NCBI RefSeq assembly: GCF_024223415.1
Contig: NZ_CP100500.1
Length of the DNA: 64,000 nucleotides
Source: Escherichia coli
GTDB lineage: Bacteria; Pseudomonadota; Gammaproteobacteria; Enterobacterales; Enterobacteriaceae
Direction: 5' to 3' (one strand)
Shown: positions 12,001 through 24,000 of the stretch, one piece after another
How the letters are laid out: each line of letters opens with the position of its first letter
Position numbering within the stretch: the stretch's first letter is position 1
Position numbers: made by a program

Positions 12001-15000
12001 GCGTCTATTCGATGAAAGTTTACCAGTTGCCGGAGGCCACTCGTGGCGCGCGCGGTCGTCCGATCGTCAACCTGCTGCCGCTGGAGCAGGACGAACGTAT
12101 CACCGCGATCCTGCCGGTGACCGAGTTTGAAGAAGGCGTGAAAGTCTTCATGGCGACCGCTAACGGTACTGTGAAGAAAACCGTCCTCACCGAATTCAAC
12201 CGTCTGCGTACCGCCGGTAAAGTGGCGATCAAACTGGTTGAAGGCGATGAGCTGATCGGCGTTGACCTGACCAGCGGCGAAGACGAAGTAATGCTGTTCT
12301 CCGCCGAAGGTAAAGTGGTGCGCTTTAAAGAGTCTTCTGTCCGTGCGATGGGCTGCAACACCACCGGTGTTCGCGGTATTCGTTTAGGCGAAGGTGATAA
12401 AGTCGTCTCTCTGATCGTGCCTCGTGGCGATGGCGCAATCCTCACCGCAACGCAGAACGGTTATGGTAAACGTACCGCAGTGGCGGAATACCCGACTAAG
12501 TCGCGTGCGACGAAAGGGGTTATCTCCATCAAGGTTACCGAACGTAACGGTTTAGTTGTTGGCGCGGTACAGGTAGATGACTGCGACCAGATCATGATGA
12601 TCACCGATGCCGGTACGCTGGTACGTACTCGCGTTTCAGAAATCAGCATCGTGGGCCGTAACACCCAGGGCGTGATCCTCATCCGTACTGCGGAAGATGA
12701 AAACGTAGTGGGTCTGCAACGTGTTGCTGAACCGGTTGACGAGGAAGATCTGGATACCATCGACGGCAGTGCCGCGGAAGGGGACGATGAAATCGCTCCG
12801 GAAGTGGACGTTGACGACGAGCCAGAAGAAGAATAATTTTACTTCTTCATGCCAAAAGGGAGCTATCTCCCTTGTTTGAATTGAAAAGTCCAGGCTGCAA
12901 AGTCTGGGCTTTTGTCGTATTAGGGCACGGTAAAGTTTGGCTGTGCCCGTAAAAAATGGCTGGCTATACACAAGGAATGTGGCAATGAGTGGTGAAAAAA
13001 AGGCGAAAGGCTGGCAGTTTTATGGCCTTGTAGGTGTCGGTGTTGTTGCGCTCCTTTCCGCGGGCGTCTGGGCGTTGCAATATGCTGGCAGTGGGCCAGA
13101 AAAAACGTTGTCGCCGCTGGTGGTGCACAACAATCTGCAAATCGATCTCAATGAGCCGGACCTCTTTCTCGACAGCGACTCTCTGAGCCAGCTTCCCAAA
13201 GATCTCCTCACCATTCCGTTTCTCCACGATGTTCTGAGTGAAGATTTCGTTTTCTATTATCAGAATCATGCCGATCGTCTGGGCATTGAAGGCAGCATTC
13301 GTCGCATTGTCTATGAACACGATCTCACGCTGAAAGATAAACTCTTTTCGTCACTCTTAGATCAGCCCGCGCAGGCGGCGCTATGGCACGATAAACAAGG
13401 CCATCTTTCACATTACATGGTGCTGATCCAGCGCAGTGGTTTAAGCAAACTGCTGGAGCCATTGTTGTTTGCCGCTATCAGCGACAGCCAGTTAAGCAAA
13501 ACGGAAATCAGTAGCATCAAGATAAATAGTGAAACTATTCCTGTTTATCAGTTGCGCTATAACGGCAATAACGCCCTGATGTTCGCGACATATCAGGACA
13601 AGATGCTGGTGTTTTCCAGCACGGATATGCTGTTTAAAGATGAACAGCAGGATACGGAAGCCACGGCGATCGCAAGTGATTTGTTGAGCGGCAAAAAACG
13701 CTGGCAAGCCAGCTTTGGCCTGGAAGAGCGTGCTGCCGAAAAAACGCCAGTACGCCTGCGCATCGTGGCCAGCGCCAGGTTGCTGGGTTTTGGCTACCAG
13801 CGGTTAATGCCTTCTTTTGCTGGCGTACGCTTCGAAATGGGTAACGACGGCTGGCACAGTTTTGTGGCGTTAAATGATGAATCCGCCAGCGTAGATGCCA
13901 GTTTCGATTTTACGCCGGTCTGGAACAGTATGCCTGCCGGGGCCAGTTTCTGTGTGGCGGTGCCGTATTCACACGGTATTGCCGAAGAGATGCTTTCGCA
14001 CATCAGCCAGGAAAACGACAAGTTGAATGGGGCGTTGGACGGTGCCGCGGGGCTGTGCTGGTATGAAGACTCAAAATTGCAAACCCCGCTGTTTGTCGGT
14101 CAGTTTGATGGCACTGCCGAACAGGCGCAATTGCCAGGGAAACTGTTTACGCAAAATATTGGTGCGCACGAAAGCAAAGCGCCAGAAGGTGTTTTGCCGG
14201 TAAGCCAGACTCAGCAGGGCGAAGCGCAAATCTGGCGTCGCGAAGTGAGTTCCCGATACGGTCAGTATCCGAAAGCGCAGGCGGCGCAACCCGATCAATT
14301 AATGTCGGATTATTTTTTCCGCGTGTCGCTGGCGATGCAAAACAAAACGCTGCTTTTCTCCCTCGATGACACGCTGGTTAATAACGCCCTGCAAACACTG
14401 AATAAAACCCGCCCGGCAATGGTGGATGTAATACCCACTGATGGCATCGTTCCGCTCTATATCAATCCACAAGGCGTGGCGAAACTGCTGCGTAACGAAA
14501 CGTTGACCAGTCTGCCGAAGAATCTCGAACCGGTTTTTTATAATGCCGCACAAACTTTATTAATGCCGAAGCTGGACGCTTTATCTCAACAACCGCGTTA
14601 TGTCATGAAGCTGGCCCAGATGGAACCCGGTGCCGCCTGGCAGTGGCTACCCATAACCTGGCAGCCGCTATGAGGCACGTCCTGCTGGCGCTGATTTGCT
14701 GGTTGTGTTGTGTTGTTGCCCATAGCGAAATGCTGAATGTCGAACAATCCGGGCTGTTTCGCGCCTGGTTTGTGCGCATTGCTCAGGAACAGCTCCGCCA
14801 GGGGCCAAGTCCACGCTGGTATCAGCAGGATTGTGCGGGCCTGGTGCGATTTGCAGCGAACGAGGCGCTGAAAGTTCACGACAGTAAATGGCTAAAAAAT
14901 AACGGTTTCTCTAACCAGTATTTGCCGCCAGAGATGACGCTAACACCTGAACAGCGGCAACTGGCGCAAAACTGGAATCAGGGGAACGGGAAAACCGGCC

Positions 15001-21000: not shown

Positions 21001-24000
21001 CTGGACGCAGGATCTCATCTATGCGGGCGATCCGGTTCATTATCACGGCAGTCGCGCTACCGAAGGGACGCTTTCCTGGCGGCAAGCCATGGCCCAGGCC
21101 GGGCAGGGAGAGCGTTACGACCAGATACTCGCGTTTGCTTATCCCGACAACAGCCTTAGCCGCTGGGGAGCGCCACGCTCAACCTGTCAGTTATTACCCA
21201 AAGCGAAAGCCTGGCTGGCGAAAAAAATGCCGCAGTGGCGGCGTATATTACAAGGCGAGACGGGGTACAACGAACCAGACGTGTTTGCGGTCTGTCGTTT
21301 AGTCTCAGGTTTCCCCTATACCGATCGGCAGCAGAAACGGCTGTTTATTCGTAACTTCTTTACGCTTCAGGATCGGCTGGATTTAACCCATGAGTATCTG
21401 CACCTGGCCTTTGATGGTTATCCCACCGGGCTTGATGAGAACTATATCGAAACGCTGACCCGACAATTATTAATGGACTAATGCTATGCGAAAGATTTTT
21501 CTTCCGTTGTTACTGGTGGCGCTTTCGCCTGTCGCTCACAGTGAAGGTGTGCAGGAAGTCGAGATTGACGCACCGCTCTCAGGCTGGCATCCGGCAGAGG
21601 GCGAAGATGCCAGTTTTTCACAATCGATCAATTACCCGGCGTCGTCCGTCAACATGGCAGATGATCAAAATATCTCAGCGCAGATCCACGGCAAAATAAA
21701 GAATTATGCTGCGGCGGGTAAAGTTCAGCAGGGCCGGCTGGTGGTCAACGGTGCCAGTATGCCGCAGAGAGTTGAATCCGATGGTTCATTTGCACGCCCT
21801 TATATTTTCACTGAAGGCAGCAACAGCGTGCAGGTCATCAGCCCGGATGGGCGAAGCCGACAAAAAATGCAGTTTTACTCAACGCCGGGTACAGGAACGA
21901 TTCGTGCACGTTTACGGCTGGTTCTCTCGTGGGATACGGACAATACCGACCTCGATCTTCACGTTGTCACGCCCGATGGCGAACACGCCTGGTACGGTAA
22001 CACCGTGCTGAAAAACAGTGGTGCACTGGATATGGATGTCACGACGGGGTATGGACCCGAGATTTTCGCCATGCCAGCGCCAGTTCACGGGCGCTATCAG
22101 GTGTATATCAACTACTATGGTGGGCGCAGCGAAACGGAATTAACCACCGCCCAACTGACGCTGATTACCGATGAAGGATCGGTCAATGAGAAACAGGAAA
22201 CATTTATTGTACCGATGCGTAATGCTGGCGAGCTGACGCTGGTGAAAAGTTTTGACTGGTGATTAATGGGGTTACCTTCGCCGTCGATGTTCAAGAAAAC
22301 ACCCGATAACTTTCGCTATCGGGTGTTTTTATTGATTAATTCAACCGTTCAATCACCATCGCAATTCCCTGGCCGCCACCAATGCACAGTGTTGCCAGCC
22401 CCAGCGTTTTATCGCGTGCCTGCATGGCATGTAATAGTGTGACCAGAATACGAGCACCACTGGCACCGATAGGATGCCCGAGCGCGATGGCCCCGCCGTT
22501 GACATTCACTTTCTCAGAATCAAAGCCCAGGGATTTCCCAACGGCAAGGAACTGTGCAGCAAATGCTTCATTAGCCTCAATGAGATCAATATCCGCCAGT
22601 TGCAGCCCTGCCAGTTGTAACGCTTTTTGCGTGGCAGGTACTGGACCCATACCCATCAATGCGGGGGGCACGCCACCGCTGGCATAACTTTTAATGCGAG
22701 CCAGGGGGGTAAGGCCTGCTGCCAGCGCCGCAGATTCTTCCATAATCACCAGAGCGGCAGCACCGTCGTTAATACCAGACGCGTTCCCGGCGGTGACTGT
22801 TCCTGCTTTATCGAAGGCCGGGCGCAATGCGCCTAACGCTTCAGTCGTAGAATCCGCTTTCGGGAATTCGTCTTGACTGAAGACGAAGGTTTTCTTCCGA
22901 GTGACAACATTTACCGGGACGATTTCGGCTGTAAAAGCACCGGACTCAATTGCGGCTGCCGCTTTACGCTGTGAATGTAGCGCCAGTTCATCCTGCATTT
23001 CTCGGGTAATTCCGTACTCTTTGGCCACGTTCTCGGCGGTAATCCCCATATGATAACCATGGGTGGCGCACATCAGACCATCGCGCAGGATTACGTCATA
23101 AACCTGTCCGTCTCCAAGACGATAACCAGAACGTGCTTTTGCATCGAGTAAGTAGGGCGCTAAACTCATATTTTCCATACCCCCCGCCACAATGCTTTGC
23201 GCCTGACCTGCCTGAATTGCCTGGGCGGCAAGCGCCACACTTTTAAGACCCGAACCACACACTTTATTGACCGTGAATCCGCACACCGTTTCTGCCAGCC
23301 CGCTTTTTAACAGTGCCTGACGTGCCGGATTTTGCCCCAACCCGGCTTGCAACACGTTACCCATAATCACTTCATCAATGTGTAGTGAATCGATTTTTGC
23401 ACGTTCAATGGCGGCTTTAATTACTGTCGCCCCCAGGTCGATGGCGCTGGTGGAAGCGAGTGAACCGTTAAAACTACCGATAGCAGTACGTACCGCACTG
23501 ACGATGACACAATTTTTCATTTTATATTCCTTCTGTTTGTAGGGGTGCCGTCAGAACAGCGTTAAACCAATGACGAAAATGACGCCGGAGAAGAGCAGGG
23601 CAGTGATGCAGTAGCCCATGATGTCGCGGACACCGAGCCCAGCGATTGCCAGTGCTGGCAGCGCCCAGAATGGTTGTGCCATGTTCATCCATTGCTCGCC
23701 GTAGGCGATCGCCATTACCGATTTACCGAGATCAGCGCCCAGCGCCTGGGCTGCGGGTATCACGAAAGGTCCCTGAATAACCCAGTGACCGCCGCCAGAC
23801 GGAACGGCGAAGTTAATCAGTGCAGAACTAAAAAAGGTCATTACCGGGAAGGTGTCTTTGTTCGCAACATTGATGAAGAATTCGGTAATGAGTCCGCCCA
23901 GACCGGAATGCTCCATCATCAGTTGGATCCCAGCGTAGAAGGGGAATTGCACCAGAATACCGGCAGTACTGCGTGCTGCCGCGCTGATAGCACGCATATA

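Follow-up and report, generated by a model that had tools for sequence, protein, structure and literature searches.

What does a bacterium gain from an alpha-2-macroglobulin (A2M) that lacks a thioester, and with which partners does such a protein work? The question is raised by the 64,000-nucleotide stretch of Escherichia coli DNA analyzed here (the window; contig NZ_CP100500.1, NCBI RefSeq assembly GCF_024223415.1), in which five tightly packed, co-directional open reading frames (ORFs) occupy positions 12985-22262 of the + strand in the order yfaA-yfaT-yfaS-yfaQ-yfaP. A reading of this stretch made from its letters alone (the sequence-only reading) had recognized five co-directional genes with operon-like packing, which the ORF positions bear out. 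It had also called the system functionally undefined, a description that is outdated because the orthologous Mag system of Pseudomonas aeruginosa has published data on complex formation, trapping, and protection against type VI secretion system (T6SS) effectors (PMC3735191, PMC5764988, PMC12663445; PDB 7BK8). The locus is almost certainly the E. coli ortholog of P. aeruginosa mag, in a five-gene magBCDEF form without magA. The best overall explanation, which can be held with high confidence, is that it represents an intact and ordinary E. coli Mag-type (type II) macroglobulin operon under purifying selection. As such, it is a known entity, a core-genome E. coli operon orthologous to a partly characterized system: the locus was already annotated in E. 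coli, the family was named in 2004, work in P. aeruginosa has been available since 2013, and the present analysis leaves that state of knowledge unchanged.

The magABCDEF operon of P. aeruginosa (PA4492-PA4487), described by Robert-Genthon et al. in 2013 (PMC3735191) and Zouhir et al. in 2018 (PMC5764988), encodes the same families in the same order, with MagB corresponding to YfaA, MagC to YfaT, MagD to YfaS, MagE to YfaQ, and MagF to YfaP. MagA and MagF are paralogs within COG4676, and MagB, MagC, and MagE belong to COG4685, COG3234, and COG5445 (PMC3735191). Amino acid identity to the Pseudomonas proteins (non-PAO1 species) is 42-48% for YfaA, 68-76% for YfaT, 52-54% for YfaS, 52-55% for YfaQ, and 53-57% for YfaP. 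The two systems further share the absence of a thioester Cys and of a conserved lipobox, an anchor helix on the DUF2138 protein, and an NRSER core in the bait. They differ in that E. coli has five genes and Pseudomonas six, with the MagF paralog MagA missing from E. coli, which is a layout variant and does not exclude the locus from the family.

The Pfam matches of the partner proteins confirm the DUF2138, DUF1175, DUF2300, and DUF2135 families named by the sequence-only reading, and export or membrane-anchor signals can be read from the sequence of each of the five products, in line with its description of the partners as secreted or membrane proteins. YfaA (12985-14673, 562 amino acids [aa]; this and all coordinates below refer to the + strand unless noted) matches DUF2138 with E = 4e-286, has an N-terminal hydrophobic helix at about aa 7-34 (modelled as a helix over 7-34), and is by homology the ortholog of MagB, the only Mag protein with a transmembrane helix (PMC3735191). 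It is also the only one of the five products for which NCBIfam has a model, named “hypothetical protein”. YfaT (14670-15293, 207 aa) has a short predicted signal peptide and matches DUF1175 (E = 3e-59) and, weakly, NLPC_P60 (E = 0.0015). Its alignment to the MagC crystal-structure sequence PDB 7BK8 (E = 5e-103, about 80% identity as counted from the alignment) identifies it as the ortholog of MagC, which is described as NlpC/P60-like. A candidate Cys55 (DCAGLV, 14832-14834) and the His residues of QHLM and YHTG are invariant in 68 orthologs; DUF1175/MagC is entered as an inactive, peptidoglycan-binding NlpC/P60-like protein in PMC10318531, which cites Zouhir 2021. YfaP (21486-22262, 258 aa) matches DUF2135 (E = 6e-17) and has a predicted signal peptide ending in SPVAHS/EG. 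It is 53-57% identical to the downstream Pseudomonas copy and 38-42% identical to the upstream MagA copy, and by this comparison is the ortholog of MagF, the paralog MagA being absent from E. coli. A PADLOC scan for anti-phage defence systems gave no match for any of the five proteins, and PDB sequence searches found no solved structure for YfaA, YfaQ, YfaP, or any type II A2M.

Relatives of the locus were collected with a YfaT scan using one genome per species, which yielded 168 relatives, and 80 loci were kept. The gene order is identical in all 80 (68 from Pseudomonas, 12 from Enterobacterales), and the extra upstream YfaP paralog, MagA, is found in 68/68 Pseudomonas loci and 0/12 Enterobacterales loci. 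The latter, among the loci kept, are confined to Escherichia, Superficieibacter, Enterobacillus, Yersinia alsatica, and Edaphovirga. E. coli YfaT is 68-76% identical to the Pseudomonas proteins and likewise 68-76% identical to those of Yersinia and Edaphovirga; this even similarity, together with the patchy distribution, would fit a horizontal transfer long ago.

In E. coli, an intact operon is the usual state and not special to this strain. The 9.5-kb locus was matched in 5398/5426 complete E. coli genomes, nearly all at 95-99% identity; at least 80% of it is covered in 5178/5426, whereas about 220 genomes fall below 80% and 28 have no match. Compared with K-12, the five genes have ratios of nonsynonymous to synonymous substitution rates (dN/dS) of 0.10-0.20; in the comparisons with E. 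whittamii and E. albertii, the ratios are 0.03-0.11. Values of 0.03-0.20 in all five genes indicate that the locus is under purifying selection and, taken with the conserved order in the 80 loci from other species, that yfaA-yfaT-yfaS-yfaQ-yfaP are real genes and not chance ORFs.

In K-12 MG1655, yfaS (b4500) is annotated as a pseudogene, as the sequence-only reading had stated. The frameshift it expected is not there: the alignment of the K-12 gene with the present one is gap-free over 4605 nt and contains 75 substitutions, and the sole disabling change is a nonsense mutation at codon 1368 (19328-19330), which is TGG (Trp) here and TGA in K-12 (W1368*). The stop allele of K-12 is shared by 412 complete E. 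coli genomes, counted by exact match to a 38-nt K-12 probe that includes the TGA and thus representing one haplotype only. Among the matches listed, these genomes are mostly K-12 laboratory derivatives (MG1655, DH5alpha, C600, J53, and evolution-experiment clones). The proposal to prefer this strain over K-12 as a model stands as far as it goes, but it does not single out the strain, given the 5398 genomes with the locus and the 412 with the stop allele. A second lesion was noticed in the type strain of Escherichia albertii, NBRC 107761 (locus L005, 8307-10001), where yfaA has a stop at codon 345 (HIS*END versus HISQEND), an independent inactivation within the same operon. One might argue from these two nonsense codons, from the 28 genomes without a match, and from the roughly 220 with less than 80% coverage that the locus is dispensable and drifting toward loss in Escherichia, and that it is intact here only for lack of time. 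The low dN/dS in every gene, cross-species comparisons included, the 5178 genomes in which 80% or more of the locus is retained, at 95-99% identity, and the fact that the K-12 allele is largely restricted to laboratory derivatives all speak against such drift, which is highly improbable.

YfaS and its bait-equivalent segment

YfaS is encoded at 15227-19831 (or from 15212) as one open frame of 1534 (or 1539) aa in this strain, as the sequence-only reading had stated. Its identity as an alpha-2-macroglobulin is confirmed by Pfam matches to MG2 (3e-19), A2M_BRD (3e-17), A2M (5e-12), and bMG10 (1e-5); the same scan gave no match to TED as such. When a profile of 77 YfaS orthologs was aligned by hhalign with YfhM of K-12, the probability was 98.9% over 1385 columns, with the TED region included, at a sequence identity of 21%. 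YfaS has only two Cys residues, at aa 25 and 1189 (1534-aa numbering), and neither C.EQ nor C..Q occurs anywhere in the frame, in agreement with the non-thioester class proposed earlier. The sole CTEQ sits in another reading frame, so that an overlooked thioester motif can be dismissed. In the alignment, YfhM PYG-CLEQ-TAS lies against YfaS residues 1066-1075, and C1187-L-E-Q of YfhM pairs with G1069-V-I-N1072 of YfaS (18431-18442). The position of the thioester Cys is Gly in 75/77 YfaS orthologs and Ser in 2/77, and CxEQ is absent from all 76 full-length orthologs. At this thioester-equivalent site Pseudomonas has kept GVEQ, whereas Escherichia has drifted to GVIN. MagD is described as an A2M without Cys residues (PMC3735191).

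Based on these features, YfaS is a type II (thioester-less) bacterial A2M of the MagD/YfaS family. It is not type I: it is without CxEQ, without a conserved lipobox, and its neighbors are yfaT and yfaQ, not pbpC. The Mag papers attribute the definition of the two bacterial A2M classes to Budd et al. 2004 and assign both to E. coli. The type I proteins, E. coli YfhM (ECAM) and Salmonella SaA2M, which accompany PBP1c (pbpC), share superfamily and domain order with YfaS, and YfhM is periplasmic and inner-membrane associated, as the YfaS system would be. YfhM, however, differs in its CLEQ (1187-1190) and its N-terminal lipobox Cys (LAGC), neither of which is present in YfaS, and type I genes form a two-gene unit as opposed to the five-gene unit of YfaS. 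The E. coli type I gene lies elsewhere, at 2647326-2652287 of K-12, beside pbpC. A phmmer search of PDB sequences with YfaS did not recover ECAM; the sole match was to complement C5, in the MG2 region (E = 3e-4). Complement C5, like YfaS, is naturally without a thioester. Eukaryotic A2M, C3, and C5 share the MG-domain architecture with YfaS but differ from it in that YfaS is bacterial, would be membrane-tethered through partner proteins, and has a conserved rather than hypervariable bait; type II trapping is, moreover, reported to be non-covalent (PMC5764988).

The N-terminus of YfaS depends on the choice among three candidate starts, ATG 15227 (1534 aa), ATG 15212 (1539 aa), and GTG 15317 (1504 aa). 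A Shine-Dalgarno (SD) sequence, AAGGA, is found 6 nt ahead of ATG 15227, and none precedes 15212 or 15317. ATG 15227 is favored as the best-supported start because of this SD and because it encodes a signal peptide, which is otherwise available only from the SD-less 15212. The RefSeq/PGAP annotation of strain SCU-316 calls GTG 15317, which gives 1504 aa, no overlap with yfaT, and no signal peptide; lacking both the signal peptide and an SD, this start is unlikely. Annotation of K-12, including that in the EcoCyc style, uses ATG 15227, and many of the E. coli RefSeq “alpha-2-macroglobulin family protein” entries may be N-terminally truncated through the GTG 15317 call. An in-frame ATG that matches the yfaS start is present within the 3' end of the DUF1175 gene in the orthologs examined. 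This conservation is not independent evidence, because conserved Arg-Trp codons of YfaT impose it, and Pseudomonas may start elsewhere. Orthologs in Pseudomonas and Yersinia have an internal Met just past the yfaT stop, which is missing in E. coli, and YfaS of E. coli therefore probably has a long, 38-aa signal peptide (aa 1-38, 15227-15340), the first 22 codons of which overlap the 3' end of yfaT. The predicted peptide consists of a basic n-region and a hydrophobic core and ends in ANA/DD. It contains Cys25 in a lipobox-like context (IAAC); this residue is Tyr in Escherichia sp. E1V33 and missing in other orthologs, and lipidation through Cys25 is accordingly rejected as a conserved feature.

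The bait-equivalent segment of YfaS (aa 807-870, 17645-17836) lies between A2M_BRD and A2M, and within it TNRSERR (aa 851-857) aligns with the MagD bait ANRSERG, residues 847-853 (bait from PMC5764988). No other part of the protein is as well conserved: E. coli and Pseudomonas are 70-73% identical here, compared with 52-54% for the whole, while the TED-like region (aa 1051-1400, 18377-19426) is the least conserved, at 39-42%. A conserved bait and a relaxed TED are the reverse of the classical A2M pattern, and this inverted conservation is one of two new observations of the present analysis. The pattern suggests that the YfaS “bait” is a specific processing or interaction site.

For the Pseudomonas protein, experimental data are available. 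MagD is periplasmic and is held at the inner membrane via MagB, and MagA, MagB, MagD, and MagF form a complex with mutual stabilization (PMC3735191, PMC5764988). The MagD bait is cut by trypsin, chymotrypsin, and papain, and MagD in which a TEV site replaces ANRSERG 847-853 is cleaved and keeps the protease non-covalently, with no thioester involved (PMC5764988). In a 2025 CRISPRi study, mag was found to shield P. aeruginosa from VgrG3 and Tae1, T6SS effectors that target peptidoglycan (PMC12663445). Cleavage of this basic bait by trypsin and chymotrypsin would also fit a host-directed colonization factor, that is, a system that mainly neutralizes gut or neutrophil proteases in the periplasm and in which inter-bacterial defence is secondary. 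In PMC5764988, such a function is given as the original proposal of Budd et al. 2004 for bacterial A2Ms, and magD mutants are cited as less virulent in a chronic infection model; the locus is, in addition, nearly universal in a gut commensal and pathogen. However, many orthologs belong to soil and plant Pseudomonas (68/80 loci), Salmonella lacks orthologs (PMC5764988), so that there is no clear link to animal hosts, and the protection established by experiment is against bacterial T6SS effectors (PMC12663445). A mainly host-directed role is, on balance, unlikely.

YfaQ and its predicted architecture

YfaQ (19832-21481, 549 aa, GTG start) has a signal peptide ending in LPTLA/EE, matches DUF2300 twice (1e-45 and 1e-42) and SpoIID once (1e-5) in Pfam, and is by homology the ortholog of MagE. 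In its AlphaFold model, a predicted domain of the penicillin-binding (class D beta-lactamase-like) type is followed by one that resembles SpoIID. A Foldseek search with YfaQ gave 192 PDB matches at E <= 1e-3, and among the 50 listed, nearly all were beta-lactamases, penicillin-binding proteins (PBPs), or BlaR1 sensor domains. In the N-terminal domain (aa ~24-245, 19901-20566), the predicted elements begin with N-terminal strands and a helix, continue with an insert made up of helices alone, and close with three strands and a C-terminal helix, an order that matches the penicillin-binding fold. S60-L-W-K63 (20009-20020) opens the first long helix at the SxxK position, like the SxxK of class D beta-lactamases and PBPs, which begins the helix that follows the N-terminal strands. 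S108 (20153-20155) follows 48 residues past S60 in the context SCG, as compared with the SxN/SxV motif, and K195-T196-W197 (20414-20422) follows 135 residues past S60, on the first of the three strands that come after the insert. OXA-10 has SxxK-to-Ser and SxxK-to-K-T spacings of 48 and 138. The assignment of these motifs to the fold rests on secondary-structure order and spacing, and the third residue of the KTG motif is Trp or Phe in the YfaQ family, not Gly.

The C-terminal half of YfaQ carries the SpoIID match together with a conserved candidate Glu, as Glu334 in VLDRE (20831-20833) aligns to the Glu of the SpoIID VVASEM/VLAGEM motif, presumably the catalytic residue. A further motif, H520-E-Y-L-H524 (HExxH, 21389-21403), lies in a predicted helix at 512-526. 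In a set of 57 diverse homologs that are 27-48% identical to E. coli YfaQ, H520 and E521 are present in 57/57, H524 in at least 90%, and a downstream Glu536 is conserved. Over the whole protein, 23/549 columns are invariant in this set, including S60, K63, S108, K195, T196, E334, H520, and E521. Compared with class D beta-lactamases, BlaR1/MecR1, PBPs, and SpoIID/SleC, YfaQ has KT(W/F) in place of KTG, SCG in place of SxN/SxV, and the invariant HExxH as an addition. The fold search gave no metallopeptidase match for the HExxH, which could be tied to the reported MagE requirement in MagD processing. The combination of PBP-like and SpoIID-like domains for YfaQ/MagE was not found in the papers searched, although it may still be published; this predicted architecture, with motif residues invariant across the family, is the second new element of the present analysis.

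The proposed relation to PBPs does not show at the level of primary sequence. An hhalign comparison of YfaQ with PbpC was not significant (E = 0.022, probability 2%); the weak alignment pairs PLGSLWKLYVYAWL with SPGSVLKPFVYGLAL, which contains the SxxK of PbpC, and ALVRSCG with ALVRSLN. Pfam gave no beta-lactamase or transpeptidase match in YfaQ. A profile of the YfaQ domain searched against 1.84 billion representatives returned 166 matches, with no PBP among the 150 listed, all of which look like YfaQ-length proteins or fragments. A sequence-level link to PBPs would give many more than 166 matches. The two DUF2300 matches, at aa 84-205 and 412-532, both cover model positions 1-127. The N- and C-terminal halves lack profile-profile similarity (hhalign E = 0.25) and differ in predicted secondary structure, which makes a true duplication doubtful, and the “tandem DUF2300” label may be a product of how the Pfam model was built.

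Up to now regarded as a DUF protein or possible chaperone, YfaQ/MagE might be a peptidoglycan-directed enzyme or sensor with a penicillin-binding-type acyl-serine site (S60-x-x-K63, S108, K195-T196), a SpoIID-type glycan-cleaving site (E334), and an HExxH, a tentative proposal that is less likely than not. If the enzymatic part were primary, the whole system could be a machine for peptidoglycan maintenance and repair, in which YfaQ and YfaT form the enzymatic core, YfaS is mainly a scaffold or damage sensor that is cut by a dedicated partner, and an attacked cell wall would be repaired or remodeled. The invariant motif residues of YfaQ, the invariant Cys and His positions of YfaT, and the inverted conservation of YfaS speak in favor of this idea. 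It is further consistent with this idea that deletion of magE prevents MagD processing (PMC5764988), and that protection by magD is specific to peptidoglycan-targeting effectors and does not extend to other classes (PMC12663445). On the other hand, TEV is indeed trapped by bait-engineered MagD, and the natural bait is cut by chymotrypsin, trypsin, and papain (PMC5764988); DUF1175 is described as inactive (PMC10318531); the K-T-W/F of YfaQ, in place of KTG, may block substrate docking; MagE was located in the cytoplasm (PMC3735191); and the enzymatic role of YfaQ/MagE is itself derived from structure prediction. A repair machine of this kind is rather unlikely. Both it and the colonization factor overlap with the preferred explanation, a Mag-type macroglobulin operon, and differ from it mainly in the attacker that is defended against and in the protein that acts.

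Gene junctions, flanks, and other features of the window

The junctions are tight throughout. yfaA and yfaT share ATGA, a 4-nt overlap, the TAA stop of yfaS directly abuts the GTG start of yfaQ, and yfaQ and yfaP are separated by a 4-nt spacer (TGCT), exactly as the sequence-only reading had given them; at the one junction absent from that reading, yfaT and yfaS overlap by 67 nt with ATG 15227 and by 82 nt with ATG 15212. Upstream lies gyrA (10209-12836) and downstream the convergent atoB (22336-23520, - strand). The 148-nt spacer between gyrA and yfaA contains no magA-like gene, but two stem-loops 3' of gyrA (fold -35.1 kcal/mol, z = -3.6), at 12856-12873 and ~12884-12912, the latter followed by CTTTTG. 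These are likely to be gyrA terminators, and yfaA would therefore require its own promoter or read-through. No sigma-70 consensus is present upstream of yfaA between 12913 and 12984; within these 72 nt, which separate the hairpins from the ATG of yfaA, there is another small inverted repeat, GGGCACGG...CTGTGCCC. In Pseudomonas, mag is regulated via RetS/Gac/RsmA, and the leader of its first gene is an RsmA target. At the other end, a strong stem-loop, AAAACACCCGATA...TATCGGGTGTTTTT, at 22291-22335 between the convergent yfaP and atoB (fold -25.3 kcal/mol, z = -3.65), is likely a bidirectional terminator that closes the operon. Inside the five-gene block, a promoter scan found two sigma-70-like matches, fewer than expected by chance, and terminator-like sites are not in excess (16, versus 11.6 +/- 3.1 expected from shuffled sequence). 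Because the junctions are tight, internal terminators show no excess, hairpins flank the block, and synteny is conserved, co-transcription of all five genes as one unit is plausible.

The GC content of the locus (0.51-0.55) is the same as that of its flanks, and the window is 99.97% identical to strain SCU-316 over positions 3-46378, where collinearity stops near fbaB. Elsewhere in the window, codon 83 of gyrA (10455-10457) is TTG (Leu) and not TCG (Ser), which corresponds to GyrA S83L, the classic first-step quinolone-resistance substitution, while D87 is wild type. An intergenic region beside a copy of IS1397 near mqo holds, at 44573-44927, 3.1 copies of a 113-bp repeat unit (95% matches), with the look of a bacterial interspersed mosaic element/repetitive extragenic palindrome (BIME/REP) array. 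Such arrays are the usual target of IS1397.

A proposed Mag-derived mechanism for E. coli and what it would mean

Whether the mechanistic picture drawn from Mag holds in E. coli is evenly balanced. By analogy, YfaA (MagB) would sit in the inner membrane through its N-terminal helix and, with YfaP, would tether and stabilize periplasmic YfaS. An endopeptidase would then cut the YfaS bait (around NRSER, aa 851-857), whereupon the macroglobulin would close and hold the enzyme non-covalently. YfaT, like MagC, would bind peptidoglycan, and YfaT, together with YfaQ on the strength of its predicted structure, could link the complex to the cell wall. YfaQ, with its PBP-like domain and SpoIID-like, lytic-transglycosylase-like domain, is predicted to be cell-wall-directed, which would parallel the YfhM-PBP1c pair. 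The assembly as a whole would shield the periplasm and cell wall from incoming hydrolases, including, in P. aeruginosa, peptidoglycan-targeting type VI effectors.

Several points weigh against this picture and against the broader reading of the locus as a working Mag-type operon. The high conservation of the bait poorly suits a broad-spectrum trap, the TED-like region is, at 39-42% identity, the part of YfaS that has changed most, and the GVIN site of E. coli is more degenerate than the GVEQ of Pseudomonas. MagA, a component of the Pseudomonas complex, is absent in E. coli. The operon status is inferred, with no promoter found upstream of yfaA, and the link between YfaQ and PBPs stands on predicted structure and motifs, since the profile search described above listed no PBP. 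We know of no reported phenotype for K-12 lacking full-length YfaS. Work in P. aeruginosa placed MagE in the cytoplasm, although it has a signal peptide, and did not detect MagC (PMC3735191). For E. coli, no experiment on the Yfa proteins was found in the literature, and a 2024 paper still calls YfaS uncharacterized (PMC10882980).

Taken as an ortholog of mag, the E. coli locus is of modest practical use. E. coli strains other than K-12, or K-12 after restoration of codon 1368 from TGA to TGG, are usable as a genetically easy host for a system that has been studied in Pseudomonas only, and the natural five-gene form offers a test of whether MagA is dispensable. The predicted architecture of YfaQ and the conservation pattern of YfaS both point to the cell wall, in agreement with the 2025 report on mag and T6SS (PMC12663445). 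If the proposal for YfaQ is true, both bacterial macroglobulin classes would be tied to a PBP-like partner, PBP1c (PbpC) in type I and, by prediction, YfaQ in type II. In that case, cell-wall attack would be countered by the type II system as a “detect, trap and repair” module, and the conserved YfaS bait would serve as a site of dedicated processing, with cleavage possibly dependent on YfaQ, and not as a promiscuous lure. The observations on YfaQ and on the bait could thus sharpen the question of what thioester-less bacterial macroglobulins do.

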